Origin: Stegostoma tigrinum
Lineage: Eukaryota
Direction of reading: 5' to 3'
Length of the DNA stretch: 64,000 nt
Assembly: GCF_030684315.1 (NCBI RefSeq)
Contig: NC_081363.1
Span: 43,989,254 to 44,053,253, forward strand
Part shown: piece after piece, positions 11,321 to 60,552 of the stretch
Layout: each line of letters starts with the position of its first letter
How positions within the stretch are numbered: position 1 is the first letter of the stretch
Notes under the pieces: model-generated
Database searches by the model: none
Told to the model about the DNA's origin: nothing
Seen by the model: only the letters and a program-made list of their open reading frames with translations
Program-made: the position numbers and the translations under genes

Positions 11321-11885
11321 CATTCATTTTTTTCTTTCATACTAAAGACTTATCCTGTAATTACACTGTTAAAAACATGAATAAATTAAGCCCAGAATAT
11401 GAGATATAACAGGGAAAATTAATCCTTTTCCTGATGTTGTACTGTTGATTAACTAAATAAAAATCACCAGGACATACATAGCTTTTAATGCATTTTAACA
11501 ATCATTCTTTTCTGGGGTGAGAGTATTGTTACAATGGTAGCTTATCACTGATGGCCCTTGAGAAGTTGGTAGCGAGCTGCCTACTTGAAGTGCTCCAGTT
11601 CATCTGGTGTAGCTTCACAGAGTGCTGTTGGAGAGAGGCCCACCCAGGATTTTTACTCAGCAACAGTGAAGAAATAGCAATAATTGTTACAAATCAAGAA
11701 AGGATGCGGCTGAGAGGGGAACTTGTGGGTAATAGTGTTCCATACGTTCACTGTCCTAAGTAGTAGAGACCTGAGATTTGGAAGGTACCGCCTGGAGGAA
11801 AAGCTACTACTAGTTGTCACTGATAATAAAATGTGAGGCTGGATGAACACAGCAGGCCAAGCAGCATCTCAGGAGCACAAAAGCT

Positions 11886-11913
11886 GACGTTTCGGGCCTA
11901 GACCCTTCATCAG
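11886..11913 (-). ncRNA. Minimal hammerhead-ribozyme-like motif in Penelope pLTR
   Basis: CTGATGA-a-gggtc(ta)ggccc-GAAAcgTC on the minus strand. Confidence 0.6.
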
Positions 11914-12410
11914 AGAAGGGGATGGGGTGAGGGTTCTGGAATAAATAGGGAGAGGGGGGAGGCGGACCGAAGATGGAGAGAAAAGAAGATAGGTGGAGAG
12001 GAGAGTATAGGTGGGGAGGTAGGGAGGGGATAGGTCAGTCCAGGGAAGACGGACAGGTCAAGGAGGTGGGATGAGGTTAGTAGGTGGATGGGGGTGCAGC
12101 TTGGGGTGGGAGGACATCCCCTCCCCCCACTGCACCACACAACCAGCCCAGCTCTTCCCCTCCACCCACTGCATCCCAAAACCAGTCCAACCTGTCTCTG
12201 CCTCCCTAACCTGTTCTTCCTCTCACCCATCCCTTCCTCCCATCCCAAGCCACACCCCCATCTACCTACTAACCTCATCCCACCTCCTTGACCTGTCCGT
12301 CTTCCCTGGACTGACCTATCCCCTCCCTACCTATCTTCTTTTCTCTCCATCTTCGGTCCGCCTCCCCCTCTCTCCCTATTTATTCCAGAACCCTCACCCC
12401 ATCCCCCTCT

Positions 12411-12438
12411 CTGATGAAGGGTCTAGGCCCGAAACGTC
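12411..12438 (+). ncRNA. Minimal hammerhead-ribozyme-like motif in Penelope pLTR
   Basis: CTGATGAagggtctaggcccGAAAcgTC. Confidence 0.6.
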
Positions 12439-13030
12439 AGCTTTTGTGCTCCTGAGATGCTGCTTGGCCTGCTGTGTTCATCCAGCCTCACATTTTATTA
12501 TCTTGGATTCTCCAGCATCTGCAGTTCCCATTATCTCTGATACTAGTTGTCACTGTTCTTTGGTGGTGGAGGGAGTGGATGAGGTGGCGATAAAGTGACT
12601 GCTTTCTCCTGGACGACAATGAAACTTCTTGTGTGTCGTGCTGTATGTGGGTTAAAACTTCAACGTTCATTCTTCCTCGGGAAGGCAAAACATCCCGATA
12701 AACAACTGCCAAAACAGAACGAAGAACGGCGGATGCTGGAAATCTGAAACAAGCACAGAAACCGCTGAAGAAACTCATCACAGATGCTGTCATTGTTTCT
12801 CCAGCATTTTCTGTTTTTCTAACAATTGCCAAAATTGCGATCGCCATTCGTTAACCCCTCCGAAGTTTTAAGGTAAATCTAAGTCATTTCAGCCAGGTAC
12901 ATTACTCCACACGATCACAGGAATCAGGACAATCTTTTGGTTTTTTAATCAGGACAGTGCTCCCATTCTGTGCAATCTCCCTCCCTTCGCTTACGAAACA
13001 ATACCCCGCCTCGATCGGAGTCCTGCTCAC

Positions 13031-13430: not shown

Positions 13431-13578
13431 ACTACGGATACTGGAAATCAGAAACAAAACATAAATTGCTGGAAGAACTCAGCAGGTCAGTTCTGAAGAA
13501 GGGTGACTGAATCCTGAACATTAATTCTGCTTTCTCTCTGCACAGATGCTGAGTTTTTCCAGCAATTTTCGTTTTTGG
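13431..13578. mobile_element. Second-family inverted-repeat element with CTGAAGAAG core, in the DMAC2L 5' region
   Basis: Arms aaattgctggaagaactcagca / tgctgagtttttccagcaattt. Related copies at about 12712-12822, 17990-18115, 31722-31876, 33688-33990, 35463-35690, 49107-49202 and 51205-51403. Confidence 0.7.
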
Positions 13579-13772
13579 TCCGGTCCAATGACGGACTGTT
13601 TGTTCAGAGTTTTACTTGTTTTCGAATAGAAGAAACCATGTGAGCCTGTCTTTGCTTTCTCCAGCTCGCAGTGACATCACGTTTGTTATTACAGTATAAG
13701 CGATGGGAAGCATAAATAAATGTGGTATTCTAATCCATCTTTGTTTTTCATAACTTCAGAAAATCTATCAAG

Positions 13773-31681: not shown

Positions 31682-31915
31682 TCATGCAACCAAACCTCAC
31701 TTTAAATAGAAAGAAAAAAAAAACAAAACCGCGTATGCTGGAAATCAGAAACAAAATCAGAAATTGCTGGAAAAACTCAACTTTGTTCTGAATAAGGACC
31801 CAAAACGTTAACTCCACTTTCTCTCCACAGATGTGGCCAGATCTGCTGAGTTCTTCCAACAGTTTCTGATTTTGTTTAATGGGAGGATACAATACTTAAA
31901 CAAAACCAGTGATCC

Positions 31916-33536
31916 CTATGCCTGCCTCTTTGTACGTTACGTGGAACAGTCCCTCTTCCGCACCTACACAGGCCCCAAACCCCACCTCTTCCTCCGGTAC
32001 ATTGATGACTGTATCGGCGCCGCCTCTTGCTCCCCAGAGGAGCTCGAACAGTTCATCCACTTCACCAACACCTTCCACCCCAACCTTCAGTTCACCTGGG
32101 CCATCTCCAGCACATCCCTCACCTTCCTGGACCTCTCAGTCTCCATCTCAGGCAACCAGCTTGTAACTGACGTCCATTTCAAGCCCACCGACTCCCACAG
32201 CTACCTAGAATACACCTCCTCCCACCCACCCTCCTGCAAAAATTCCATCCCCTATTCCCAATTCCTCCGCCTCCACCCCCACGATAAGACATTCCCCTCC
32301 CGCACATCCCAGATGTCCAAGTTCTTCAAGGACCACAACTTTCCCCCCACAGTGATCGAGAATGCCCTTGACCGCGTCTCCCGTATTTCCCGCAACACAT
32401 CCCTCACACCCCGCCCCCGCCACAACTGCCCAAAGAGGATCCCCCTTGTTCTCACACACCACCCCACCAACCTCCGGATACAACGCATCATCCTCCGACA
32501 CTTCCGCCATCTACAATCTGACCCCACCACCCAAGACATTTTTCCATCCCCACCCCTGTCTGCTTTCCGGAGAGACCACTCTCTCCATGACTCCCTTGTT
32601 CGCTCCACACTGCCCTCCAACCCCACCACACCCGGCACCTTCCCCTGCAACCGCAGGAAATGCTACACTTGCCCCCACACCTCCTCCCTCACCCCTATCC
32701 CAGGCCCCAAGATGACATTCCACATTAAGCAGAGGTTCACCTGCACATCTGCCAATGTGGTATATTGCATCCACTGTACCCGATGTGGCTTCCTCTACAT
32801 TGGGGAAACCAAGCGGAGGCTTGGGGACCGCTTTGCAGAACACCTCTGCTCAGTTCGCAACAAACAACTGCACCTCCCAGTCGCAAACCATTTCCACTCC
32901 CCCTCCCATTCTTTAGATGACATGTCCATCATGGGCCTCCTGCAGTGCCACAATGATGCCACCCGAAGGTTGCAGGAACAGCAACTCATATTCCGCCTGA
33001 GAACCCTGCAGCCATATGGTATCAATGTGGACTTCACCAGTTTCAAAATCTCCCCTTCCCCCACCGCATCCCTAAACCAGCCCAGTTCGTCCCCTCCCCC
33101 CACTGCACCACACAACCAGCCCAGCTCTTCCCCTCCACCCACTGCATCCCAAAACCAGTCCAACCTGTCTCTGCCTCTCTAACCTGTTCTTCCTCTCATC
33201 CATCCCTTCCTCCCATCCCAAGCCGCACCCCCATCTACCTACTAACCTCATCCCACCTCCTTGACCTGTCCGTCTTCCCTGGACTGACCTATCCCCTCCC
33301 TACCTCCCCACCTATACTCTCTCCACCTATCTTCTTTTCTCTCCATCTTCGGTCCGCCTTCCCCTCTCTCCCTATTTATTCCAGAACCCTCACCCCATCC
33401 CCTTCTCTGATGAAGGGTCTAGGCCCGAAACGTCAGCTTTTGTGCTCCTGAGATGCTGCTTGGCCTGCTGTGTTCATCCAGCCTCACATTTTATTATCTT
33501 GGATTCTCCAGCATCTGCAGTTCCCATTATCTCTGA
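31916..33536 (+). mobile_element. 5'-truncated Penelope-like retroelement (probably Neptune-type), with open RT C-terminus, GIY-YIG endonuclease and 3' pseudo-LTR
   Basis: ORF 31833..33182 has RYIDD (RT), a thumb region FLDLSV...HFKPTDSHSYL, a Cys linker CNRRKCYTC and GIY-YIG VVYCIHC..C..LYIGETKRRL..RF.EH. It is followed by a C-rich repeat ending ...cccattatctctga. Confidence 0.92.
33407..33434 (+). ncRNA. Minimal hammerhead-ribozyme-like motif in Penelope pLTR
   Basis: Same 28-mer, downstream of the GIY-YIG ORF. Confidence 0.62.
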
Positions 33537-34926
33537 TCCTTCAGTACCTGATCACATTGCTCAGCCATCCTAAAATACATCAATACGATTACTTTTAACT
33601 TGTAGTTAATTTAATATAACGCAGTTATGTTTTGAACTCTAAAGTGGCACAATAAAGCAAAGCACTGAATATCCAGTTAGTATGTAAAAACTGAAATAAC
33701 TGTGGATGCTGTAAATCAAAAACAAATTCAGAAATTGCTGGAAAAGCTCAACAGATCTGGCAGCAAAACACCTGCTGATCTGTATGTGCTTGCTTAGTAT
33801 GATCTGCCTGTACTGCTCGCAAAGAAAGCTTTTCACTGTACTTGGGTACACATGACAATAGATCAGATCAAATCAAAACATCTGTGGAGAGGTGGTTTGA
33901 AGGACAGTCACTCGATTCAAAACATTAACTGATTTCTCTCCATAGATGCTGCCAGACCTGCTGAGTTTTTCCAGAGATTTCTGCTTTTCTTTGTGACCAG
34001 TTAATATGGTTAGGTGATGTCAAATGAGGGAAAAAAAATTAACCAAGTCATTTAAACAACTCTCAACTCCTGGATGAGATCTTTTGGTTTTAACTCATTT
34101 AAAACTCATGCTCTTGTAGAATTGGAACCTTTATGTTTGCCTTAACATTTGGAAGACCTCAATCTAAGGTTTTAGGTTTTATAGGATGACAAGGTAAAGG
34201 TAAAGTCATCATAGTCCTACCAGACCAAAGGGCTGTTCTCTCATTAGAGAAAGAGAGAGAGAGGAATGACTAGTGGTGGTTAAACCTGAGGTCTAAGGGA
34301 AAGCTCTAGAAAGAGAGTACTTCAGGGTAACCTCAGCTGTTGATAGAATAAAACCCATGCCAGTGGCACCAAATCCAAAGACATGCAGGTTAGGTAATTA
34401 GCCCCACGTCATAGACCCCATACAGGGTTAGGAAAATGGAGGCAGTAGCTGCGTGGGATGTTATTTCAGTGCAGACTCGATGGGCCGAATGGCCTGTTTA
34501 TGCTGTGAAGGGATTCTATGATTAGCAATCACACTGCATCACAGACTGGCCAACAGAGCTAACCAAACCTTTAAAAGATAGCACTTCTAAAAAGTATCAT
34601 GACAGCTTAGAATTGCACAGAAACATCAGCCTAGAATAGTGCACTCCACTTCCATACCCGATCTATATTTAAATGCGTACATCAAAATAAAGACCACTAT
34701 TTCAGAAATGCTATATGATGGTTGATACATATATATTCAATGAATGAAACTGGTCAAAGGCATTTGAGTGATACTTAAAGCAGCCCAGTATTACTATTTA
34801 TTATTAACTCTGCAACTGCCCAACTGAGAAATTTATATTTCAAAAGTAGTTTTAATCTTGTGCTTATCAATATCGAGACACTTTTTAAAAAATCTGAACC
34901 AAAGATGCAGCAGTTTTTAAAATATC

Positions 34927-35462: not shown

Positions 35463-35690
35463 AAAAACTGAAAGAACTAAGGATGCTGTAAATCGGGAAC
35501 AAAAACAGCAGTTGCTGGAAAAGCTCAGCAGGTCTGGCAACATCGGCAAAGAAAAATAAGTTAACATTTTGGGCCCGGTGACCTTCAACTGTCATTAAGT
35601 TCAGAGGAAGGGTCATCAGATCCAAATATTAACTGATTACTTTCTTCACAGATGCTGCCAGACCTGCTGAGCTTTTCCAACATAATTGTT
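35463..35690. mobile_element. Second-family hairpin element (head-to-head degenerate hammerhead cores)
   Basis: gctggaaaagctcagcaggtctggcaacatc ... gatgctgccagacctgctgagcttttcc inverted arms. Confidence 0.7.
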
Positions 35691-35841
35691 ATCTTTAGTT
35701 TAAGCATATAATCTACTCAGTCACTGAAGCAGTTATCTTCTTTTAGTAATGCCACTCAAGAACAGCTAAACAATTGTCATATATCTTATAATAAGTGGTA
35801 AAACTAACCATTAGATATTTGTTGAAAATATAGGATAGTCA

Positions 35842-39531: not shown

Positions 39532-40038
<507 letters not shown>

Positions 40039-40206: not shown

Positions 40207-42060
40207 AACATAAGAACTAGGAGTTGGAGTAGGCAATTCAGCCCCCTCAGCCTGCTTCATTATCCAATACAGTCATGGCTGATCTTATCTGGCTTTCAAC
40301 TCCTGCCTAATCCCCATAACTCTTCAACCTATTGCTGAATGAAAATCTGTCTGTCTATCTCCTCAAGTTTACTCAATGCTCCAGCATCCATTGCACTCTG
40401 AGGAAATGAATTCCATAGATTCACAACCATTTCATGTTTTAAATCTGTCACCATTTATCCTAAAACTACAACCTCTCATTCTAGATTGTTCCATAGGAGG
40501 AAACATTCTCTCTTTATACACTTTGTCAAACTCCTTTAGCATCTTATATACCATGGTTAGATCTCCTTCCATTCTTCTAAATTGCAGACAGTATAAGCCT
40601 AAACTGCTCAACATCTCTCCGTAGGATAAACTGTTCATCCCTGGAATCAATTTAGTGAATCTCCTCTGAACTGCCTCCAATGAAACTACATCCCTCCTCA
40701 AGTAAACGGACCAAACTATATACAATACTCTAGGTGCAGTGTCACTAATGCCCTGTACAGTTGCAGCAACACTTCCCGAATTTTATACTCTCCCTTGAGC
40801 AATAAATACCAAAATTCCATTTGCTTTCCTTATTACCCACCATACCTATGTACTAGTTTTCTATAATTCAGGCATGAGGACACCCAGATCCCTCTGCACT
40901 GAAGCAGTCTGAAGTTTCTCGCTATTTAGATAATAAATTGCCTTTCTATTCTTCTGATCAAAATGGATAACCTTGTTATCAAATTTAAACTCACTCAATC
41001 TGTAAAATTTTGGCTAACTTACCCAATCTATCCATATCCAATTATACATTTCTTATTTCTTCAGTGCAACTTACTGTCCCAATGATTTTAGTGTCATCTG
41101 CAAATCTGATGACAGTATATTGTATCCCTGAATCCAAGTCATTAATATAGATTGTAAATACTTGGTGCCCAAGGACTGAAATCTGTGGGAGACTCTGTTA
41201 GTTACAGCTTGCCAAACAGAAAAAGACCTCTTCATCCCAACTCACTCAGAGGCAGCAAGAACTGCCAGTGCTGGAGTCTGAGATAACACAGTGTGGAGCT
41301 GGATGAACCCAACAGGCCAGGCAGCATCAGAGGAGCAGGAAAGCTGACGTTTCGGGTCAGGGGAAGGGAGCTCTGAAATAAATAGAGAGGAGGAGTGGGG
41401 CTGCAGAAGTTAGATGGGATGGTGACAGGTGAGTGCAGGTAGGCAGTGGTGGGGATTGGTCAGTGAGGTTGTGGAGTGGATAGGTGGGGAGAAGACAGAC
41501 AGGTCAAGGAGGTAGGGATCAGAGGAAGGCTTGGTCATGGGATGGGGCCAGAGGTGGGGAGATTTTGAAACTAGTAAAGTCCACATCGAGATCATTGGGT
41601 TATAGGCCCCTGAGGCAGAATATGAAGTCCTGCCCCTCCAGTTTCCAGGTGGCGTCGTTGTGACACTCGAGTAGGCCCAGGATGGACGTGTCATCCAGGG
41701 AGTGGGAGGGGGAGTTGAAGTGGTTTGCAATTGGAAGGTGTTGTTGTTTGTCACGAACAGAGCGCAAGTGCACCTCACTGACCAATCCCCACCACTGCCT
41801 ACCTGCACTCATCTATCACCATTCCACCTATCTTCCCCAGCCCCACCCCTCCTCTGTCCTTATTTCAGAGGCCCCTTCTCCCTCCTGCATTTCTGAAGAA
41901 GAGTCCCGACCTGAAACATCAGCTTTCCTGCTCCTCTATTCATCCCAACTGTCTGCTTTTTGTTGGTTAATCTTCTAAGCTAATAAATTAGATGTAACCC
42001 CATGTGGTCTTATGACTGTAACCAACTGCTACTGTTTGGGGACTTGTAGGTTCCTTCCAC
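40207..42060 (-). mobile_element. CR1 LINE fragment split by a Penelope insertion
   Basis: ORF 40432..40725(-): LEAVQRRFTKLIPGM..LSY.E.L..LGLY. CR1 sequence resumes after the TSD at 41950. Confidence 0.8.
41243..41938. mobile_element. Penelope-derived inverted insertion nested in a CR1 LINE, 12-bp TSD
   Basis: Minus-strand GIY-YIG tail and pLTR, then a plus-strand pLTR from about 41771. TSD ttcatcccaact at 41231-41242 and 41939-41950. Confidence 0.8.
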
Positions 42061-45000
42061 TAGGGAATTCTTTCCCGTGCTATTTCTTAATCAGTTTAAT
42101 TAGAAATTTGGTGTCTTAATCTCCGGTGCCTAAATAATTTCTCACTACAGCACTAATCTTTTCCTTTACCAAAGTTACAACACCTCTTTTCCCTTCTTGC
42201 CTATCCTTCCAAAGCAGAGTACCCTTGGATAGCCAATTTTGAAACCTGGTCTCCCTGCAACTATGTCTCAGTAGTCACCGTCAAATCACATCCTTTCATC
42301 TCTAGTTGTACTACTATGTAATTAATTTTATTGCAAATGCTTCATGTTTTCAGCTTCAAACCCTTTAAATTTGTTCAAATTTAATGTTTCCCTACTCTTG
42401 TACAATTCCTTGTTGCAATAGGACATTTAGATAATAAAAGGAAGGGACCAGCTATGTTAATGACCCTTTTATTAGTTCAAAACAATGAAGTGAAACAGTT
42501 ACACGGTTGACATTTTAACTTCAAATGCTTAACTTTTTATAGTAAACAATAACGTCTCCTGCACAAAGAATCCAATTATTTCCCTTCTCATGTTCATTGC
42601 AAATACCATTTCTTCTTAATGGGATTTCCTGGTTTCCTACTTGCTGAAAGACATAAATGGAAGATCCGAGTATGAACTGATTCTGAACAAACTAAATACT
42701 AGTTATTTGATCTGGATAATTTGTTCTCTAGCACATGTGATACCACTTATTCAATGAACTATTGGATGACTGATCATTTTTACAAACTTTTGGAACCACA
42801 CACGTCCTTTCAGAAGGAGAAAAATGGTGCTGTTTCGCAATGAGTAAAGGTATCACATTACAATGAAAAACACTGCGGCAAGCAAAGCAGTAACGATTAA
42901 AACAAATGTTTGATTAAAACTGATAATGAACAGCAAAGAGCACAGTAGTCTATGTAACAACATTAGGTTTTGCTACAAAAAATAAAAGCATGATTTTTTT
43001 TTCTCAATTTCATATACTTACCACTGGTATTAAATATAGTGCAATCTCTCCAACCCAGAATGCTGGAAACCAAGTCATTTTCAGATATTGGAATTTTCTC
43101 ATTTTTAAGAATGATGTTAGGATGCCTAACCATTAGTGTATGAACCAGAGAACACCATAAAATATAAATATTTACCATTAAAACAAAACAAAGGATAAAA
43201 CGTTATGCATCAGTTGTAATATTTTTCATTTATCCAAGGATATACCTTTCAGGTTTCCTAAAAGTCCTGCACTAAAATGATTCTGAGCTGCTCGAGTCCT
43301 GTTGAGAAGATTTCCAGCCAACATGTGTTTCTGAATTTTTTTCCAGACCAGAGAGGTTACAGTGTTATGATTTGCCAGAGTTATGCATGTTTTAAACATA
43401 ATCATGACCAGGAAAGACTACCAGTTCTATCCTAATGGGGGTAAGTGCTTACGATATGTGCCACCCTGTAAAATGGCAACAATTTAGTTTGCCATAATGG
43501 GTCTTTACTTGACTCTATTTCACATTCCATAACTGAACAACTGACACGTTTCAACTCTGGAGCCAAGATGGGTTCAATAAAGCTTTGAGTTATTACTCTT
43601 GAATACCAGTATAAAATATTAGTAACATAGGTTTGTCTTTCCTAAAAAAATTTTAACTGTGAAACAGGGAATTAATATTTTTGTAGAAAAGTTAATCGTT
43701 AATAATTGAATGGTATTCAATTTAAGATAAGTTTATAAACTAATCACTCAAACAGAATGAAAACTTGGCATCACAATAATGCACATTTTCTGTGTTGAGA
43801 TATAATGTGCTCATTTGATGTAGTACTGCTCTTTTTATGTTAAAGCTATTTAGTGCAAGTCGTAAGAACTTGAATTCAAGTTTGAAACAAATATTTGTGT
43901 AATTATGGCAGGAAAAGACTTCAATCTAAGCAAAATTGAAGCAAAAATCTACATTTAAATTCTGATCGTTCTAAATGACTGACCATATCGTAGATTCAGT
44001 TTAAAACTGACCACAGGTAGTTTTGTAATCCGGATTCGGCTTAGATTCAAAACATCGACTTTCCTGCTCCTCTGATGCTGCCTGACCCGCTGTGCTCCTC
44101 CAGCTCCATACTGTACTGATTCTAAAGGGGCCTTGACAGGCTAGACCTGAGGGGAGGCTCCTCCATCTTAGGGAATCTTAATTAGTTTAAAAATAAGGGG
44201 TGTCCTTTTTAATGATGGAAATGAGAAATTTCTTCCCTCAGAGGGTTGTTGGTCTTTGCAATTTTCATCCAAAAGTACAGCAGTGGTTGATTCAGCAAGT
44301 ATTTTCAAGGCTGGGTTTGACAGAGTTTTGATCTACAAACAGATGAAGGGATTTGGGAGCATGGATTGCAGGGAAGAAACTGGTGTTAAGAATCACATTA
44401 GCCATGACCTTACTGAATGGCACGGCAGGCTCATTGGGCTGAATGGCCTTCTCATGTTACTACTACTTATAATTTTATGATTTTAAAATATCAAGCAGTA
44501 AAGTCTCCATGCATTACTTTGTCTTTAAAGTCCACAGAACAGAGAAACTAGGTGCTGGAAGTTGTAGATGCCCTGCAAGGGTGGAAGTAATGGCATGTGG
44601 GGTGATTTTATTGGCAGGATTATATTCTCAGTTTCCCTGACAGTAGGTTAAGATACAGATATGTCAGCAGCATGTTAAACCACATGCCAACCTGCGGTTG
44701 ATTCTCACTTGTAATACATTTACGGACCATGAATATTCATTAACATACACCATTTTCATTTTGAAGGTCTGACCCAATTTTAAAGTCAGCAGTTAATGGG
44801 CTCAAGCTAGTTTAAAGATGGTATGCAGTAGATTGGCTTTGAGTTGCAAGGCCAACACTTTCCCTCACTTAACTCTGTGACACAGGAGAAGGGATCAGGA
44901 AAATAGCAACTTGCTTGGAGGGTCAGGCCAGCAAAGGTGAGTCAGGGATAAAGGGGGCAGGGTGCAGTGGATAAGGGATTCAAGGGATAATAGACGGTGG

Positions 45001-45326
45001 GGTCGAAGTCATGGCAGAGTGAAGTAGGAAAAACTTAGGTGTCATTGATGTGGTGGGGGTAAATATCAATCAAGCTAAAAAAGTAAGGTGCCCAAAGTCA
45101 GGACTGTCTAAATAGGTAACCATCACTTGGGTGTTGACTGGCACAAAGAGCTTTTAGTTCATGTAATAATTACAGTAATCCCTACTGAAAGTAAAAGCCA
45201 TTGTCTAAGACTGATGCATAGAAAGAAGGGTCAACTGAGCCTGCAGGTTCAGCTGCATTCCAGAGTGACAAGTACAACAGTGGACACTAACATGAACATT
45301 AAATAAAGAATGAAGAATAAAACATT

Positions 45327-45535
45327 AGAGATAACAAGGTGTAGTGCTGAATGAACACAGCAGGCCAAGCAGTATCAGAGGAGCAGGAAAGCTGACGTTT
45401 CCTCAGTTTCTGAAGGTCAAGACCTGAAACAACAGCTTTCCTGCTCCTCTGATGCTGCTTGGCCTGCTGTGTTCATCCAACTCTACACCTGGTTATCTCA
45501 GATTCTCCAGCACCGGCAGTTCCTACTATCTTTGT
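45327..45535. mobile_element. Older Penelope-derived mini-hairpin element
   Basis: Head-to-head pLTR tips. Degenerate TSD aagaataaaacatt (45313-45326) / aagagtaaaacatt (45536-45549). Confidence 0.8.
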
Positions 45536-46232
45536 AAGAGTAAAACATTGTTTCTTTCATAATGAAGGAAGTTACCTTTTCCTGTCACCACCAATACATA
45601 CCAAAAAAGAGGTGTTCCAGTAAACTTAGCTCTTTGAGCTAGTTTCAACAAAGTGATGATGCACTTTATTCATAGTTAATTAATGTGAAATATCTACAAA
45701 TGAAATTTAAATTTTGAAATATATCTTATGGCACCTCTGTGCTTTCAAGTATTACATTAATGGCCATGGAGTTGGGCAGGAAAGTTGCAGTTATGAGACA
45801 CTGCCTTACTGTTTGAGGATGAGACTTTTTTTTTGTTTTTGTGGATGTTACTGACTGGGCCACCATCTACAGTTGCCCTTGAGAAGTTGGTGGCGAACCG
45901 CCTTCTTGAACCACTGCAGTCTACATGCTGCAGGTAGATCCATAATGCCATTAGAGTGGGAGTTCTGATCCAGCAACAGTGAAAGAATGGCAATATTTTT
46001 CCAAGTCAGGATGATGAGTGGGTTGGAAGGGTTCCCAAGTGGTGGTGTTCCCAAGTATCTACTGCCTTTGTCATTCTGGATGGAAGTGGTGGTAGGTTTG
46101 GAAGATGCCCGCTGATGGCAGGTTTCAACAAAGGAAAAAAAAGCTTTCCAGCTGCACGAATGTATGTATCTTACACATGTCAAACACTAAAATTTTAATC
46201 GTAATCCAAAGGAAGCATGAACATGAGAATTG

Positions 46233-46798
46233 GAGATATTCCCTCCCATTCCTTAAATGACATGTCCATCCTGGGCCTCCCGCAGTGCCACAATGATGCC
46301 ACCCGATGGTTGCAGGAACAGCAACTCGTATTCCACTTGGGAACCCTGCAGCCTAATGGTATCAATGTGGACTTCACAAGCATCAAAATCTCCCCCTCCC
46401 CCACTGCATCCCAAAACCAGCCCAGCTCGTCCCCGCCTCCCTAACCTGTTCGTCCTCTCACCTATCCCCTCCTCCCACCTCAACCGCACCTCCATTTCCC
46501 ACCTACTAACCTCATCCCGCCTCCTTGACCTGTCCATCCTCCCCGGTCTGACCTATCCCCTCCCCACCTCCCTACCGATACTGTCCTCTCCACCTAAATT
46601 CTCCTCTGTCCATCTTTGGTCCGCCTCCCCGCTCTCCCTATTTATTTCAGAACCGCCCCCCAATCCCCCTCTCTGATGAAGGGTCTAGGCCCGAAATGTC
46701 AGCTTTTGTGCTCCTGAGATGCTGCTTGGCCTGCTGTGTTCATCCAGCTCCACACTTTGTTATCTTGGACTCTCCAGCATCTGCAGTTCCCATTATCT
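46233..46798 (+). mobile_element. 5'-truncated Penelope-like insertion, 11-bp TSD
   Basis: GIY-YIG tail (MSILGLPQCHNDATRWLQEQQLVFHLGTLQPNGINVDF) plus pLTR. TSD catgagaattg at 46222-46232 and 46799-46809. Confidence 0.88.
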
Positions 46799-46961
46799 CA
46801 TGAGAATTGCACTTGGCACACACTTTCGGTTACATCACTCAGAATGGCACACTGACAAATTCTAAACCCCACACCCCCAACCCTGATGTCAGTGAGGTAC
46901 ATAAAGGGCAAAACTGGGATGATTTTTATTTTTATCCCAATCACAACTGAGCTCTTCATTT

Positions 46962-47650
46962 GTGATAATGGGAACTGCAGATGCTGGAGAATCCAAAATA
47001 ACAAAGAACATATATATACCACATTGGCAGATGTGCAGGTGAACATCTGTTTGATATGGAAGGTCATCCTGGGGCCTGGGATGGGGGTGAGGGAGGAGGT
47101 GTGGGGGCAAGTGTAGCATTTCCTGCGGTTGCAGGGGAAGGTGCTGGGTGTGGTGGGGTTGGAGGGGAGTGTGGAGCGGACAAGGGAGTCACGGAGAGAG
47201 TGGTCTCTCCAGAAAGCAGACAGGGGTGGGGATGGAAAAATGTCTTGGGTGGTGGGGTCGGATTGTGGATGGCGGAAGTGTCGGAGGATGATACGTTGTA
47301 TCCGGAGGTTGGTGGGGTGGTATGTGAGGACGAGGGGGATCCTCTGGGGGCGGTTGTGGCGGGGGCGGGGTGTGAGGGATGTGTTGCGGGAAACACGGGA
47401 GACGCAGTCAACGGCATTCTTGACCACTGCGGGGGGAAAGTTGTGGTCCTGGAAGAACGTGGACATCTGGGATGTGCGGGAGTGGAATGCCTCATCCTGG
47501 GAGCAGATGCGGCGGAGGCAGAGGCGGAGGAATTGGGAATAGGGGATGGAATTTTTGCAGGAGGGTGGGTGCCGGAGTAGTGTATTCTAGGTAGCTGTGG
47601 GAGATGCTGCTTGGCCTGCTGTGTTCATCCAGCTCCACACTTTGTTATCT
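46962..47650 (-). mobile_element. Internally deleted Penelope-like insertion with short inverted arm, 14-bp TSD
   Basis: ORF 46798..47466(-) matches the 449-aa ORF. TSD tgagctcttcattt at 46948-46961 and 47651-47664. Confidence 0.88.
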
Positions 47651-49252
47651 TGAGCTCTTCATTTATCAGCTTTGTACAGATGCAAATATGAAGTTCAGAA
47701 CATTGTTACAGATGAGAAATGGCACCGTCTCAGTTATTTAAAAATTTAAATTAGTGGTTTCAAATCCTTTGTACATAGAAAGCAACTATTAGTAAGACTT
47801 AATTTGTTGCATGTTTCAAAATGCATAGCTTATAGCAGAGCATTTCATGTTTGAACAAATTATCACATGTTTATATTAACTTGTAACTTTTTTATTTACC
47901 TACTTTCTGAATATAGTAATATCACACAATCTACAAATGTCTAAAGTAAAACTTTGGCACTATATAGTTTGCGTTCAGCAACAGGGTTAGTTTGACACTC
48001 CCACAAATTTTTCATACATCTCAAACACACCATAAATAACTGATTTGTTACAAGTTGTCGTATTTACTTGCAAATGCCAACCCATTCTTAGCAACAGCAG
48101 CAGTAAGGAAAACAGATTATTGCTAGGTTCCAATATGTTACTTTTAAAATTAGTTCTGGTCTTGTGTTCGTGTCCAGGTAATGAAACTGAGAAATATATA
48201 GTTTATCATATATCAGAACATTAAAAAAAATTCACATTCATTTCATGAACACCAAAGTTAATGTTTACATCACAATACCCACAGAATGAAATGTTTAATA
48301 CAATCGGCAGTTACTGACAAACACACACCACTTGGAAGTCTGCAATTTTTTCCTGGTCAACATCTATATGAATATGAACATGAAAAGGAACATTATAACA
48401 AGTAATGCAGTACAAACAAGAAACATATTGCACCAAAACTGTCTTTGCTAATACAAGTAAACTTTCTTGATCAATTTTTCACCCCTGGAAAAATGATTCA
48501 TGTGCTGAGTTCCTTTTAAAATCCTTCTAAAAGTACAAGGGTTTCTGAATTACCTAATCATTTTTAAGATGACTTTTAATTTAGAAAGATTTATCACAAA
48601 CAATCCAATAGTGCATGAAAAAGGAGGACATTTTTGAGAAACAATGTTATTTAAAAGCTTTTGCAGACATTTGGCAATGGGGAAAATAGCATGAATTATT
48701 CAGAAATGCAAGGATATTCATATCAATAATACAGCCAAAACCATTTATATTGTTAAAATGGGTCAGTGGGAAAAATGTTGATGGTATCACGTTATAAAGT
48801 AACAACAACCAATGCCAACAGAATGTTCAGTATGCAAGTAAATCCATAATTTATTGGTCTGGAGACACAAGACTGACACTCTAGAAAGCATTGGCAAAGA
48901 CACACAGAATACTGTGTCCAACTGTGGTGTCCATTTATGAAAAGACATACATACTGTAAAATCTTCAAAGAAGAGTAATAAAAACAATAATTTTAAACAA
49001 TCCAGGAGAGGTTAAAGTGGATTTTTCAGGGAAAATAACAAATAAAGTAAAGAAATAAGGTAAAGGGTCAAAAAGGGAAGAGTTGAGGAAGAATGTTGGA
49101 TGTGCCCTGAAGAAAGGTCACTGGACCCGAAACATTAACTCTGGTCCTCTGTCCGCAGACACTGCCAGAAAGTTTCTCCAGCAATTTCTCTTTTTGTTTC
49201 AGGAATAATGTGAGTTTCAACTTTTATCGATACAAATGACGATTGCTCTGAT

Positions 49253-50365
49253 AGAACATAAGAACCAGGAGTAGGAGTAGGCCATTTGGCCCTTTGAGCC
49301 GGCTTCATCATTCAATAGGACCATGGCTGACCATTGTGTGGTCTCAGTTCCATCCTCACACCATAACCTTTACTTCCTTTACTATTCAAAAAAATCTTTG
49401 CTTTAAAAAACATTCAATGAGGAAACCTCAACTACTTCACAGGGCAGGGAATTCCACAGATTCACAACCCTTTGAGTGAAGACATCGTTCCTCAATTCAG
49501 TCCTAAATCTAGTCCCCCTAATTTTGGGGCTATGCCCCCTTGTTCTTGTTTCACCCACCAGTGGAAATAACCTCCCAGCTTCTATCTTATCTGTGCTCTT
49601 CATAATTTAATATATTTCTATAAAATTCACCCCCACCTCTCATTCTCCTAAATTCCAATAAATTTAATCCCAGTGCACACAGTTTCTCCTCATAAGTCAA
49701 CCGTCTCAACTCTAGAATCAACCTTGTGAATTTTCTCAGCACCCCTTCCAATACATCCTTTCTCAAGTAAGGAGACCAAAACTATATGCAGTACTCCAGG
49801 TGTGGCCTCACCAGCACCCTATACTGCTGTAACACAACCTCCCTGCTTTTAAACTCAATCTCTCAGGCAATGAAGGACAAAATTCCGTTTGCCTTAATTA
49901 CCTGTTGTATCTACAAAACAACCTTCTGTGATTCACGCACAAGGACACCCAAGTCCCTCTGCACAACAGCATGCCTCAATGTTTTACCATTCAAATAATA
50001 GTCCATTTTACTGAAATTCTTACCAAAATGGTTGGCTTCACATTTTTCAACATTGAAGTTCATCTGTCAGACCTTTGTCCACTCTTTTAAACTATCTATA
50101 TCCCTCTGCAAACTTTCAGAGTCCTCTACACATTTTGCTCTACCATTCATCTTAGTGTCATCCGCAAACTTCGATACATGTGGTCCCCAACTTCAAATCA
50201 TCTATGTAAATTATAAACAATTGCAGTCCCACAATATCCTGGAGGCACACCACTGGTCAATATTCATCACCCAGAAAAGCACCCATTTATCTCAGCTCTT
50301 TGCTTCCTGTTAGTTAACCAATCCTCTTTCCATGCTAATACATTGCCCATAACACCATGCACCTG
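49253..50365 (-). mobile_element. CR1 LINE 3' fragment
   Basis: ORF 49403..49603(-): LFPLVGETRTRGHS.KIRG..FRTELR..VFTQRVVNLWNSLP. Confidence 0.85.
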
Positions 50366-50597
50366 ATGAACAGGTAATACTCACACATACAACATTATGC
50401 TCCATTGCTGTGAATCAACATAACAGTAAATCATGATCCAACTTAAAAAAAATCACTAAGCAACCCCATAAGATGACTTTTGTAAGTTAGTGATCTCAGA
50501 GACAGAACTACAATGTATGAAATCTACAAGTACAAGGTATCTCATATAAATACAACACACACATTTAAAATATAATTTGCAGGGTTTTTTTTAAAAA

Positions 50598-50905
50598 CAT
50601 AGAATCCCTACAGTGTGGAAACAGGCCCTTCGTCCCAACAAGTCCACACCGACCCTCAGAACATCCCACCCAGTCCCATCCCCCTATAAACCCACCTAAT
50701 CTACATATCCCTGAACATGAAGGGCAATTTAGCACAGCCAATCCACCTAGCCTGCACGTCTTTGGACTGTGGGAGGAAATCGGGGCACCTGGAGGAAACC
50801 CATGCAGACACGGGGAGGATGTTTGGAGTTTGCACAGTAACCTGAGGCTGGAATCGAACCCAAGTCCCTGGTGCTGTGAGGCAGCAGCACTAACCGCTGT
50901 GCCAT
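50598..50905 (-). mobile_element. HE1-type tRNA-derived elasmobranch SINE
   Basis: A box tggcacagcggttagtg, B box gggttcgattcc, central tgcgtgggtttcctccaggtgc-like domain and a CR1-like tail. Confidence 0.8.
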
Positions 50906-51639
50906 GGTCCTGCTCCATATTCTTTGCTTACTTGTCATATGTTTACTTATCACCCATCCATTGATGCCCTGAGAAGACGCTGCTCGGCTGCCAAATTAAA
51001 ATGCTCCAGTTGAGAGCAGTTTGGCGCAATCTATTAGCCTCCACTTCAGAGAGCAAGTTGGTGTGGTGCTGCAGTGATATATTAGCCAAAGTAGGCAAGG
51101 ACAGGGGTTTTTCAAAAGATGTGTCATTAGTGAACCAGGTAGGTTTTAAAATATAATAGAACAATCTCATGGTCAATTTCACTGACCAGCTTTTGAAGAG
51201 ACATTAATAAAAACACAAAAGGTTTGGGCAGACTTGACAGGTCTGACTGCATCTGTGGATAGAGAAGAAGCGTTAACATTTCAACCCTTCTTCTGGACAA
51301 GTTTGAAATGTTCACTGTTTCTCTCACCACCAGAACAGCTGGATTTCTCCAGCATTTTCTGTTTTATTTCAGATTTCAAGCATTGGAATTACTTTGCTTT
51401 TATTTGAAAAAGTAACTTTGGTGAACTAATAAACTCCTTTTGGTGCAGCAGGTTTCTGATGAACAATTGCAGCTGACCTCTTGCCTATGCAAAGAGAAAG
51501 CAGATTAATAACTATTAGCCACTCTTGTACATTTCTAATAAATCAGTTAAAAAGCTGTCACCTATAAACAGTTTAGCTACCTTTCCTCACTTGGTGTGTT
51601 TTGTCCCAAAACAGGAAAACAAAATAATTAATATGTGAT

Positions 51640-51869
51640 CAGAGATAATGGGAACTGCAGATGCTGGACAATCCAAGATAACAAAGTGTGAAGCTGGATG
51701 AACACAGCAGGCCAAGCAGCATCTCAGGAGCACAAAAGCTGACATTTCGGGCCTAGACCCTTCATCAGAGAGCTCTCAGATGAAGGGTCTAGGCCCGAAA
51801 CATCAGCTTTTGTGCTCCTGAGATGCTGCTTGGCCTACTGTGTTCATCCAGCTTCACACTTTATTATCT
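51640..51869. mobile_element. 230-bp palindromic Penelope-derived element, 15-bp TSD
   Basis: Two pLTR tips head-to-head around the centre cagagagctctcag. TSD taattaatatgtgat at 51625-51639 and 51870-51884. Confidence 0.9.
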
Positions 51870-53829
51870 TAATTAATATGTGATATAGATAGAATATCAG
51901 AGAGTAAATTAGAGTATAAACAGTTAATTCAGTCCACATGATTTCCATTCAAAATGCATTGAAATTGGCTTATTTGTTTAACTCTCAAGAGAAATAATAT
52001 GCTAATTTTTTTGATCCCTGGAGTTAATTCAGCCAACTTGATTCCTATTTCATTGCAATAAGTCAGGATTGAAATGCTCTCTGCAAGCAACAACTTGTAG
52101 TAGTACTACATGTTTGATCACTCCAGATGAACAATATATCACCAACTATTTTTGTGAATGAATAAGTTGACAGAACATCAGCTATTTTTATAGCAGTTTA
52201 TGTTAAAAGTCCGTGGCATATACGACAAAAAAAACTTCAGCAACTCACAAAATCAACGCCTCTCCAAATTTTAAAGAAATGATTTGTGTTCTCTCCTCCC
52301 ACTTTTTATCTGCTCTCAAATCAAAACTGCTCCATTCTGTTTCTGAACCAATTACTTAAATCTGCGAATCATCCCTTCAATTTTATCCAGTTTTTAAATT
52401 TTCATGAACATGATTGTATTGTGTGAGATGCACACAAAGTTTTCTGGTAACTTTAGAAAACACACAATTGTCATAGCCAACCATCTGAATTGTTCTTGTA
52501 GAAGTGAAAACGTCTAGAGAAACCAAACTTTCTTTGATATATCTGGCACAACAACACTGTAGCTGTCAATGTGTGGTAGTCATAAATAGCAAAAAACTGA
52601 TCAAAATGTTGTCTCTGTAAAATGTGTATTGCTGACATTTGCTAATTTATTTAAATGTGAAATATTGTCTTACTGGATAATAGCATTCATTGGCTATTAT
52701 AATTCAGCATTTCTGGCCTTAATAAATGATAACATACAGTAATTACCTTAAACTATTAAGGTTGGGGGGTCATACTATACATCCTCAACTTGAAATACTC
52801 AAACCAAATTTTTTTTAAAATCAGATTCAAGTTATTAGTTTTTTTTCTAAAATGTTATTCCAGACAATGAAGCATTGGGTGCTGTTTAGTTAACTAATAT
52901 TGTCAAACCGTGAAACAACCATTATGCATGCAAACAAAGCCACATAGGGAGTGTTTCAATTTGACTGTTACAGAGTAAACACTTTCCTTGGAGGGACAAA
53001 TCCATTTACCCATATACAGTAAGCTTTGCAGAGTTGATTGAGCCAAAGAGTGGCACGGTGTTAACCAGAACTGTGCAGTCTGACAGCACAGGACACTTCT
53101 AAATTTCTACTTCTTGTTAAACCAAAGCCTCTCTCACATTAGGAATAATATTGGCTTGCATGGCTAGAGCCAAATTAAAAAGAATTCCTGCTCCAATGAT
53201 TACTCCAATTGTCAAACATGCCCTGAAGTACAATGAACCGCTCCTCATCATTGTCACCATGTAAGAAAACATTACCATGATACTGAATGTAAGCATCATA
53301 TCTAAAAATTAACTGTTTCTTTTTCTCTCTCACTCCCCACAGAGGCAGCCAAACCAGCTGGGTTTCTCCAGCACTTTGTTTTTACTTCAAACCCCACTGT
53401 TTGGGACTTCTACCATTTGGCAGTGCAGTTTCACTGCAACACAATCAGGGGTTCAATACAGGAATGTCTGGATGACATGAGCATGGGTTACATACTTGGC
53501 CTACCTGGTTTTCCCAGCAGCTATAAGCCCCATTCTCAGAGTTCTAAGCAATGAGAGGAGATCCATCTCCCTCAGTATGATGGTAGAATGCTGAAAGAAT
53601 GGCAAGTCCCAAGCTTCCAAGTCCAGGGCTGTGCATCCAGATAACACAAAAGATTTCGTAAAGAGGTATGCTTGAAATGAATCAATTTTCACTTTAAAAG
53701 AACTGAGCTGTATGTTAGTTTTCTTTTCTTGCCACAAATCCCTGTTGCTCTATTTGGTTCTTAAACTATCAAACCTATTCATTATTTGTGTGACTAGACA
53801 ATTACCTGGACACCAGGAATAGATGTCAG

Positions 53830-54140: not shown

Positions 54141-54958
54141 GGGAATTTGCTGTGAAAGGCAGGTCCAAGGATTAGAATTGACACAGAAATACAAGGGCAA
54201 ATATATGATCACACTCACTTCGCTTAGACACATACCATCATTATGTGTTGCAGCAAAGCAATGCCTGATTACCGAAGAAGAGCAGAGAAATGATACGTGA
54301 GACGGTGGGACCGGTCATGATCCACAAAATGCTCACGGTAGTAGCTATGAAGAAAATAACTTCGTTGAGAGGGGAATGGCCACAATCCATTCGTGGTGCT
54401 TTGTCAATCAGTGCATGAAACCAGCAGCAATATGATTTAATCTCAGAGACGACGGGCTTTTCCTGTTTATTTGATTGGAAATGGTGTGCGGGGATACAGG
54501 GAAAAGGCAGGGGACTGGCAGTAGATAACAGCGAAGACAGGATGGGCCGAATGGCTTCCTCCTGCACCAGAGTAACTCGGTGATTCTGGCGCCTTCAGCA
54601 GCTTGCAGCGTTGCCTCGAACGGCATCCACACAAACCTCAGCCGGAAAACAACAAGCCCCAGTTTCCCCGTCCCTCGGACAAGGCGACCGGTCCCAGCTG
54701 TCGACTGTTCACTCAGCCCGAGCTAACTACTTCATTCAGGCGATGAGGAAGCGAGATTTATTTCTCACCCGTACAAGAAACCCTCAAAATTCAAAAAGAA
54801 ATCGCAATCCCGCGGATACTGGAAATCTGAAATGAGTACAGAGAAACTCGTCAGGTCGCGGTAGCATTTGTGCACAAAGTTACTGTTTCAAGTCCAATGT
54901 GCCTTCTTCAGGTCTGTATAAGATCAATCTACTCAAGGCTGTGCGGACTCAAATTTTA

Positions 54959-55800
<842 letters not shown>

Positions 55801-57929: not shown

Positions 57930-60552
57930 ACATAGATGAGGGTTGGAGAAACTACCTAGGGATGATGATATGTCCTGTTGTGGTGGCACAATAGTATACC
58001 AGTCAGGAGGGTGTTGCTTTGGGAGTCCTCAACATTGACTTCAGCCCCCACAAATTCTCATGGCTTCAGGTTAAGCATGGGCATGGAAACCTCCTGCTGA
58101 TTACCATATACCATCTTCCACAGCTGATGAAACAGTACTCCTCACTGTTGAGCAACACTGAAGAGGAAGCACTGAGGATAGCAAGGGCACAAAATGTATT
58201 CTGGGTAGGGGATTTCAATGTCCACCACCAGGAATGGCTCAGCAGCAGTTCTACTGATCGAGCTGGTCGGGTTCTGAAAAGGATAGAGCTGCTAGACTGG
58301 ATCTGCGGCAGATGGTCTTGGAACCAACAAAGGAGGGAAACACATGCTTGAATTCATCCTTACTAATCTGCCAGGTGCAGTAAGAGAGTACCCATTGCAC
58401 AGTACTGTTGGAGCCTTCACATTGAACATACAACACAATGGAAGTTATCATCATGCAAAAATGTGTACAGACTTCACACAGATCGAGCAACTCAAGACTG
58501 GGCATCCATGAGGTGCTGTGGGCCATCACCAGCAGCAGAATTGTATTCCAGCACAACCTGTAACCTCAAAGCCTGGCATATCCTCCACTCAACCATTACC
58601 GTCAAGCCAGGGGATTAACCCTGGTTCAATAGAGAGTGCAGGAGGCCATGCAGCACCATGTATACCTGAAGATGAGGTATCAACCTGGTGAAGCCACCAA
58701 ACAGGATTACTTGCACGCCAAATAGCAAAAGCAAGTGATCAACAGAGCTAAGCAAACCCACAACCAATGGGTCAGATCTAAGCTCTGCAGTCCTGCCACA
58801 TCCAGTAGTGAATGGTGGTGGACAATTAAACAACTCACTGGAGGAGAGGAGGCTCCACGAATATCCCCATTCTGAATGATGGAAGAGCCCAGCATATCAG
58901 TGCAAAAGATAAGGCTGAAGCATTCACAGCAATCTTCAGCCAGAAGTGCCGAGTCGATGATCCATCTCTGCCTCCTCCAGTGGTCTTCAGCATTACAGAT
59001 ACCAGTCTTCAGCCAATTCGGTTCACTCCACGTGATATCAAGAAACAGTTGGAAACACTAGATTCTGTAAAGGATACGGGCCCCAACAAAATTCCAACAA
59101 CTGTATTGAAGACTTGTGCTCCAGAACTTGCTGCTCCCCTAGCCAAGCTGTTCCAGTACAGTTACAATATTAGTATCTACCATACCATACAATTTGAAAA
59201 ATTGCCCAGGTAAGTCCTGTACACAAAAAGCAGGACAAATCCAACCCAGCCAAATACCGCACTATCAGTCTACTCTCAATCAATAGTGCAGCACCCGCTC
59301 AGAAATAACCTGCTCAGTGACGCTCAGTTTGTGTTCCGCCAGGGCCACTCAGCTCTTTACCTCATTACAGTCTCGGTCCAGACAGGGACAAAAGAGCTGA
59401 ATTCCAGAGGTGAGATGAGAGTGACAGACCTTGACATCCAGGCTGCACTTGACAGACAGTGGCATCAAGATGACATAGCAAAACAGGAATCAATAGGGGG
59501 CAAACTCTCCAGTGGTTTGAGTCAGTCCTGACACATGGGAAGATGGTTATGGTCAAATCATCTCAGCTCCAGGACATCACTGCAGGTTAGTGTCCTAGAC
59601 CCAACCATCTTCAGCTGTTTCATCAATGGCCTTCCCTCCATCATAAAAGGTCAGAAGTGGGGATGTTTGATGATAATTGCACAATGTTCAGCACCATTCG
59701 TGACTCCTCAGATACTGAAGCAGTCTATGTTCAAATGCAAAATTTGGACAATATTCAAGCTTGACCTGACAAATGGCAAGTGGCATTCACACCACGCAAA
59801 CGCCACGCTATGATTACCACCAAAAAGCGACAATCTAACCACAGTCTCTTGACATTCAATGGTGTTAACATCACTGAATCTGACACTAATCAACATTCTG
59901 GATGTTATTATCGACCAGCAACTCAACTGGACTCACCACATAAACATAGTGGGTACAAAAGTGGGCCAGAAGCTAGGAATACTGGGGTGAGTAATTCACC
60001 TCCTGACTCCTCAAAGCCTGTCTGCTATCTACAAGGCGCAAGTCAGGAGTGTGATAGAATGTTCCCCATTTGTCTGGATGAGTGCAGCCCCAACAATACT
60101 CAAGAAGGTGACACCATTCAGGACAAAGCAGCCCACTTGATTGGCACCACACAAGCATTCACTCCTTCCAGCACTAATGCTCAGTACACACTGCTGCTTC
60201 TATCTACACGATGCACTGCAGAAATTCACCAATGATCCTTATATAGCACCTTCCAAACCCACATTTCCATCTGAAAGGATAAGGACATCAGGGAGATGGG
60301 AACACCACCACCTCCAAGTTACCCTCCAAGCCACTCACCATCCTGACTTGGAAATATATTGCCCTTCATTCATTGTAACTAGTTCAAAATCCTGGAATTC
60401 CTTCCCTAATAGAATTGTGGGTCAACCCACAGGAGGACTTGAGCAGTTCAAGAAGGCAGCTCATCACCACCTTCTCAAGGGCAATAGGGATGGGCAAGAA
60501 ATGCTGGCCAGCCAGAAATGCCCACATTCCACAAATGAATAGAAACAAAAAA
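57930..60552 (+). mobile_element. Long decayed CR1/L2-group LINE ORF2 (APE endonuclease + RT) with intact 3' tail
   Basis: Frameshifted pieces: GDFNVHH (APE), GPNKIPTTVLKTCAPELAAPLAKLFQYS, QFVFRQGHS, SVLDPTIFSCFIN. The tail ...ttcaagaaggcagctcatcaccaccttctcaagggcaatagggatgggcaa is also at about 6500-6660(+), 26430-26610(+), 45840-46110(-) and 11500-12650(-). Confidence 0.8.

Follow-up and report, generated by a model that had tools for sequence, protein, structure and literature searches.

The 230-bp hairpin at 51640–51869 of the window (the whole stretch of 64 000 nucleotides analysed here) is of a known kind: it is an extreme Penelope insertion product, and neither a MITE nor an active ribozyme unit. 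We consider it probable that the hairpin was formed independently of its relatives, with a preferred 5′ boundary. The single locus is an ordinary decayed retroelement stump in what is most likely a CDKL1-like intron, and mechanistic interest is confined to the recurrent 5′ boundary. For annotation, such hairpins mimic MITEs or microRNA precursors and belong under Penelope.

The insertion, its parent family and its hammerhead motifs

The features discussed are listed in Table 1. The insert is flanked by exact 15-bp direct repeats, as stated in a preliminary description of the locus; among 1000 intervals of 230 bp drawn at random from the window, none had an exact flanking repeat of 15 bp or more, and 11 bp was the maximum. 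The same description had called the element an almost perfect 230-bp hairpin. The inverted arms (51675–51772 and 51773–51870) are indeed stable and 95% complementary with 0 nt between them, and the computed fold energy is −176.6 kcal/mol (z = −22.8, with equal stability in none of 200 shuffles), but the palindrome takes up no more than 196 of the 230 bp. The leftmost 35 nt (51640–51674) are unpaired, lack a counterpart on the other arm and correspond to the Penelope 'tail'. The symmetry axis was correctly placed a few nucleotides upstream of the CTGATGA cores: it lies between 51772 and 51773, and the core of each arm follows 4 nt downstream. The mutation of the plus-arm core to CAGATGA was likewise confirmed. 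The family sequence beyond the tail agrees with the last two to three bases of the left duplication, which is possibly a priming microhomology.

Table 1
Features of the window. Positions are those of the window; TSD, target-site duplication.
Feature	Positions	Strand	Remarks
Long-armed head-to-head insertion (~290 + ~425 bp), junction far upstream of hammerhead	11823–12540		Exact 15-bp TSD; arms with 0 differences over 94 pLTR positions
5′-truncated parent-family copy: RT end (YIDD motif), CX4CxxC linker, GIY-YIG, then same pLTR and tail (33404–33535)	31812–33535	+	
Consecutive coding stretches, CDKL1-like kinase	39532–40038 and 54956–55579	−	Profile and structure matches
Older-subfamily head-to-head insertion, asymmetric centre	45327–45535		14-bp TSD with 1 mismatch
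Closest relative of the arms	46233–46798	+	11-bp TSD; 6-nt inverted stub of element end on 5′ side; reference for reads
Tail arm running into internally deleted ORF, joined by 3-nt microhomology to 50-bp short arm	46962–47650		Exact 14-bp TSD
Left target-site duplication	51625–51639		15 bp
Penelope 'tail', long 3′ end, on a single arm only	51640–51674	−	35 nt; long end shared with the copies that end at 12540, 33535 and 46799
Tail-side arm, a pLTR piece beginning 4 nt before hammerhead core	51675–51772	−	1 difference from copy at 46669 over 94 positions
Minimal type I hammerhead motif, core intact	51741–51768	−	C15.2 to T (GAAATGTC), CpG decay
Head-to-head junction without spacer	51768–51777		Axis 51772/51773
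Short arm, start as in tail-side arm, ending at short 3′ end	51773–51869	+	5 differences from tail-side arm in 97 positions
Minimal hammerhead motif with two lesions	51777–51804	+	G16.2 lost (G16.2 to A; GAAACATC) besides U4 to A
Right target-site duplication, exact	51870–51884		15 bp

Four of the five differences between the arms are carried by the short arm; three of these are G to A, one at a CpG. One of the differences on this arm is a variant of another subfamily. This pattern could reflect a separate template, cDNA editing or chance.

The arms are 94–98% identical to other copies in the window and 96–98% identical to pLTRs that adjoin an RT/GIY-YIG frame, in agreement with their earlier reading as hammerhead-bearing Penelope termini. 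This stop-to-stop frame (31812–33182) takes in about 90 bases of unrelated upstream DNA. It contains a YIDD motif, VVYCIHCTRCGFLYIG, and, before the endonuclease, the linker CNRRKCYTC, which is of the CX2-5CxxC type; the Pfam GIY-YIG match is below cut-off (E = 6e-4). Full-length relatives, which are longer proteins, numbered 82 at E ≤ 1e-3 among 2031 candidates, the best with 53% identity. Both of the relatives that were scanned for domains have RVT_1 and a weak GIY-YIG, and comparison of the best relative with solved structures gave no match. The CX2-5CxxC linker is described as marking Neptune or Nematis and as absent from Penelope/Poseidon (PMC8557442, available text). By its linker sequence the parent family is therefore classed as endonuclease-positive Penelope-like of Neptune/Nematis type, not Poseidon. 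Young copies finish at either of two 3′ ends about 35 nt apart. A 23-nt family motif had no matches in metagenome, prokaryote-genome and viral contigs.

Hammerheads were called from the motif and a published descriptor (PMC4209133), not from Rfam: the window had no Rfam match at gathering score, and the 17 weak matches in 44000–53000 included no hammerhead family. The 14 sub-threshold Rfam microRNA matches that fall on hairpins were rejected as microRNA precursors, being hairpin artefacts below gathering score. Of the nine matches to the motif in the window, five are intact throughout. In helices I and II, 93% of cells are paired, against at most 52% when the helices are slid; covariation was not significant, the same score being reached by 89 of 500 shuffles. 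The motifs share with the minimal hammerheads of metazoan PLEs (as described in PMC4209133) the core, the extra base before helix II, G10.1–C11.1, the palindromic 15.2/16.2 positions and the lack of helix III. They differ from them in having only 2 bp in helix I and 4 bp in helix II and in forming, in the insert, an opposed pair 8 bp apart that is locked in a duplex. In the fold prediction, the pairing probability of helix II is 0.000 on both hairpin strands, compared with 0.80–0.90 in the monomer. The hairpin is thus predicted to bury both hammerheads and not to act as a ribozyme, neither motif being able to fold because it is locked in the hairpin duplex. As far as the available text of PMC4209133 goes, a single minimal motif gave no cleavage and dimers gave low cleavage.

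Related insertions in the window and in sequencing reads

Eleven head-to-head insertions were counted by eye from alignments of the window (11823–12540, 12716–12819, 13435–13581, 31735–31878, 33698–33996, 35480–35692, 41259–41937, 45327–45535, 46962–47650, 51207–51385 and 51640–51869). All but one of them, by the same reading by eye, have a tail at one end and a short end at the other (10 of 11; 41259 is unclear). They stem from at least three subfamilies, and their 11 centres are all different, no two being alike: among them are a blunt centre well upstream (11823), a centre within the ORF with 3 nt of microhomology (46962), a 5-nt spacer (45327) and the perfect axis of 51640–51869. Since the centres differ, the insertions were probably built anew and not copied as a MITE-like unit, and to judge from their sequences they make up a continuum of independent events. 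Duplications of 14–15 bp were found around five head-to-head insertions, and the duplication lengths vary (11, 14, 14, 14, 15 and 15 bp, with 15 bp at 51640–51869); no duplication was found in three of eight young or intermediate copies and in six of seven older pairs tested. The element at 45327–45535, described earlier as an older one of the same design with its own duplication, is head-to-head and has a duplication of 14 bp with one mismatch, but its centre is asymmetric: one arm begins some 19 nt into the hammerhead, and around five unassigned bases separate the arms. The insertion at 51207–51385, 250 bp from 51640–51869, is a head-to-head Penelope hairpin of an older subfamily, and further hairpins of older type are found at 12716, 13435, 31735, 33698 and 35480.

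The starts of the arms were read by eye and compared with a uniform model, using the 12 young or intermediate short arms whose start is no more than 60 nt from the core and excluding seven that start far upstream. Five of the 12 begin at most 4 nt before the core (P = 0.006, or 0.047 when the two arms of 51640–51869 are counted once).

For a genome-wide view, reads of four runs (of 20 listed) were aligned to the single copy at 46150–46940; there were about 250 000 contigs per organism A run and 33 508 for organism B. On this reference, 46669 corresponds to the axis of 51640–51869, 46673 is C3 of the core and the ribozyme cut site is 46700|46701. Runs X1 and X2 are from the same species and gave near-equal counts except where stated; the loose ends considered are the 24 listed of 2734, and some ends are uncounted. 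Loose ends at the short 3′ end (46762–46765) were found in at least 5272 contigs of X1 and at least 5225 of X2, and in at least 1031 of X11 (46764–46765); those at the long 3′ end (46799) were found in at least 953 and 966 contigs of X1 and X2, respectively. The two peaks lie about 35 nt apart, which equals the length of the tail, and short ends outnumber long ends by about 5:1 among those listed.

At the 5′ side, 735 contigs of X1 pass into unrelated DNA before 46672, a position one base ahead of the hammerhead core. The agreement at this loose end is 0.37, like that of the 3′ ends, compared with 0.66–0.98 for family-internal breaks. Among the loose ends listed, this one appears for X1 only; it is not among the six listed for X2, nor among those listed for X11. 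Head-to-tail joints returning to 46669, 46672 or 46673 (five of 15 joints listed, of 479) occurred in at least 78 contigs of X1 and at least 74 of X2. They give tandem monomers of 94–98 nt that bear the hammerhead (46669–46767), an arrangement that could form dimeric ribozymes in the manner of retrozymes. Tail-to-tail joints of the short end to an inverted long end (46764–46767 with 46797–46800) were also recorded, in at least 193 contigs of X1 and at least 189 of X2 over the four joints listed (largest, 89 and 93); these may be arrays of head-to-head units or insertions into the element's own end.

Near-core head-to-head joints were found in raw bisulfite reads, of which 171, with about 86 starts, switch strand at 46674/46690. 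Simulated converted reads of 51640–51869 gave 46674/46690 (bottom strand) and 46675/46690 (top strand) in one of three scoring schemes and other ends in the other two. The bisulfite joint pools junctions in which one arm starts anywhere from about 4 nt before to about 17 nt inside the core (~46669–46690). Near-core joints correspond to roughly 400–800 loci, given an assumed genome of 2.5–4 Gb; the depth in the neighbouring bin is about 5300 reads. A strand change at 46669/46669 was not among the 15 joints listed of 479; unitigs resolve perfect palindromes poorly. Library fold-back is an unlikely source of the bisulfite joint by reasoning, since it would convert both arms alike and would not give the 46674/46690 asymmetry. 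Near-core hairpins are thus a recurrent class, but the bisulfite joints do not tell one exact centre from another. Reads and window arms together point to a preferred 5′ boundary that is a cluster just before the hammerhead core, and random truncation is probably not the whole story.

In organism B, a single contig depth (13.8) was recorded on both flanks of 46233–46798, and a contig of 875 nt leaves too little space for the insert. Organism B probably has an empty site here, in which case the copy would postdate the split.

Origin of the hairpin and of its 5′ boundary

An inverted 5′-truncated copy, a 30–40-bp tail on one end and a target-site duplication are the published norm for Penelope (PMC8557442; PMC3846280; PMC8969392, available text). 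EN+ Penelope-like insertions such as Pen2a_Av likewise combine a truncated copy with an adjacent inverted truncated copy, and have the one-ended tail of 30–40 bp, a variable duplication and a parent with RT plus GIY-YIG at the C terminus (PMC8557442; PMC3846280). The insert at 51640–51869 differs from them in that its copies are reduced to the last 97–133 bp and meet without spacer or overlap. Of the two origins proposed in the preliminary description, an extreme 5′-truncation product of Penelope integration, with an inverted copy, fits. The other, a distinct non-autonomous ribozyme hairpin unit, found no support: the centres of all 11 window insertions differ, at least three subfamilies are involved, the 35-nt tail is one-sided and the hammerheads are predicted to be unable to fold. 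This either/or misses a middle case, favoured by the reads, in which independent events often have their 5′ ends among the same handful of pre-core bases.

The explanation that we prefer is double-primed integration. The element protein would nick both DNA strands, 15 bp apart, and from each nick reverse transcription would be primed at one or other of two internal start sites separated by 35 nt; both cDNAs would halt 4 nt before the hammerhead core and would then be joined. In 51640–51869, two head-to-head pLTR pieces, one short-ended and one tail-ended, lie within the 15-bp duplication. Were the template RNA to begin at helix I's 5′ edge, priming within the transcript's first repeat would yield a run-off cDNA of about 95–135 nt. 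Solo arms, head-to-tail tandems and head-to-head hairpins would be alternative resolutions of this one product, the hairpin being a dead end that is not itself copied. Run-off at the RNA 5′ end, for which the transcript start is inferred, is offered tentatively as the cause of the preferred boundary. With similar reserve, the hairpins may be regarded as products of a stereotyped 'double run-off', in which a protein dimer primes both nicked strands and the cDNAs fall off the RNA 5′ end at the hammerhead edge and not at the cut site.

The model for this mechanism is the lizard element Poseidon_Ac (PAc) of Anolis. In vitro, both strands were cut and extended, two internal RT start sites bound the tail, shorter 5′ ends led to shorter products and ribozyme cleavage was dispensable; the protein is predicted to be a dimer (PMC11167929, available text). 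PAc shares with the shark family the two fixed 3′ ends bounding the tail, the AT-rich target and an ATG at the start of helix II, and its cut site lies 26 nt downstream compared with 25 nt in the shark family (PMC11167929). Against the comparison, PAc belongs to another clade (Poseidon), whereas the shark family has the CX2-5CxxC linker; the frame from the helix II ATG stops after 13 codons in the young shark subfamily; and the available text of PMC11167929 describes no preferred 5′ boundary for PAc. The ratio of about 5:1 between short and long ends among those listed also departs from the 1:1 expected under strict two-ended priming, although older subfamilies confound it.

Ribozyme cleavage was rejected as the origin of the 5′ boundary: the arms still contain all of the core that precedes the cut site, which means that the template had not been cleaved at that position, and no joints or loose ends at 46700|46701 were among those listed. 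A splice acceptor was likewise rejected, as no AG precedes the boundary. A TCT-type initiator motif fits the axis, yet occurs twice in 281 nt of pyrimidine tract, and is only a lead. A cap-derived G is compatible with the centre of 51640–51869, whereas two solo copies (17779 and 37042) are without it.

Nearly as likely as an RNA 5′ end is a boundary set by an RT stall, by a template-switch hotspot at the border of the C-rich tract and the ribozyme, or by a protein-protected edge against 5′-to-3′ decay. It would account for a boundary that is a cluster (46669, 46672 and 46673) instead of a single base and that is found where a long pyrimidine tract ends. The start site in Drosophila virilis is 46 bp ahead of a 75-bp intron (PMC2377424, available text) that ends at helix I (PMC4209133), and the RNA of that element therefore does not start at the ribozyme edge. 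Against a stall, the C-rich upstream template strand presents no obvious structured block, and many copies read through.

We regard it as somewhat unlikely that the second arm arose by fold-back, with one cDNA, or an antisense template as proposed for rotifer elements, priming and copying itself in place of priming from a second nick. Self-priming has been proposed for palindromes at inverted junctions (PMC3846280, available text), and a zero-spacer centre would suit a hairpin intermediate. Both arms of 51640–51869 share a variant at pLTR position 81–82 that is absent from the five other young arms compared, and the arms of 11823–12540 are identical where compared; two RNAs from a single source copy would, however, be expected to share such variants just as much. 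At position 91 the arms of 51640–51869 differ by subfamily-diagnostic variants, which speaks against fold-back, one site being insufficient. If the tail strand simply folded back, the tail arm should always reach further 5′; this is true of three young or intermediate insertions and false for four older ones (13435, 31735, 35480 and 51207). Fold-back also needs a separate reason for stopping exactly at the short end, which is a mapped RT start site in the lizard element.

That the hairpin is a self-copying non-autonomous unit, mobilized in trans by Penelope proteins, is very improbable. Near-core hairpins are numerous, as the bisulfite reads attest, and the tail-to-tail joints (89 and 93 contigs for the largest listed) could be arrays of hairpin units. 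Penelope proteins are able to mobilize cargo in trans when it is flanked by pLTRs (PMC3846280, available text), and tandem retrozymes derive from pLTRs (bioRxiv 10.64898/2026.07.22.740005, available text). These non-LTR retrozymes are also short, non-coding and pLTR-derived with a type I hammerhead, but are arranged head-to-tail and able to form dimeric ribozymes, which the head-to-head 51640–51869 cannot. A replicating unit is further opposed by the lack of any matching pair among the 11 window centres, by the 98-bp duplex of −177 to −190 kcal/mol, which blocks the ribozyme, and by the need for copying of a hairpin RNA to begin at one RT site and to finish precisely at the mirrored position of the second site. 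A true MITE, that is, a derivative of a cut-and-paste DNA transposon with terminal inverted repeats, is matched in size and hairpin shape only and can be dismissed: the ends are asymmetric (35-nt tail), the duplications of 11–15 bp are variable and not short and fixed, and the arms are the terminus of a retroelement.

How Penelope head-to-head structures form and what the hammerhead does are described as open questions in the available text of the literature cited here. Opposite-strand motif pairs 100–700 bp apart and many solo truncated copies were already noted in 2014 (PMC4209133, available text). With its roughly ten thousand arms, its fixed 3′ ends and a preferred 5′ boundary that lies upstream of the cut site, a genome of this kind is well suited to testing such questions. 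If double run-off is true, several hundred fossils would show where the RNA starts and by what chemistry the ends are joined, and would test the origin of Penelope inverted structures. In the literature searched, which leaves out most subscription papers and Repbase/Dfam entries, neither a preferred 5′ boundary at the edge of the hammerhead nor a class of minimal hairpins was found to be described. Dfam is said to contain an ancient palindromic vertebrate Penelope repeat; UCON13 is classed as Penelope, and no mention of a palindrome was found in the literature searched.

Host locus

The insert is located between two minus-strand kinase-coding stretches, which cover Pkinase profile positions 1–56 and 51–88 and for which the best match to a solved structure is CDKL1 (E = 4e-28). 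As it is flanked by these two stretches, the insert is most likely intronic in a CDKL1-like gene. Hairpins across 41259–51869 would sit in the same intron and would place long double-stranded RNA in the pre-mRNA. Frames in 50565–50964 resemble what we take to be the elasmobranch HE1 SINE, and fragments at 58830–60542 read like the reverse transcriptase region of a LINE.
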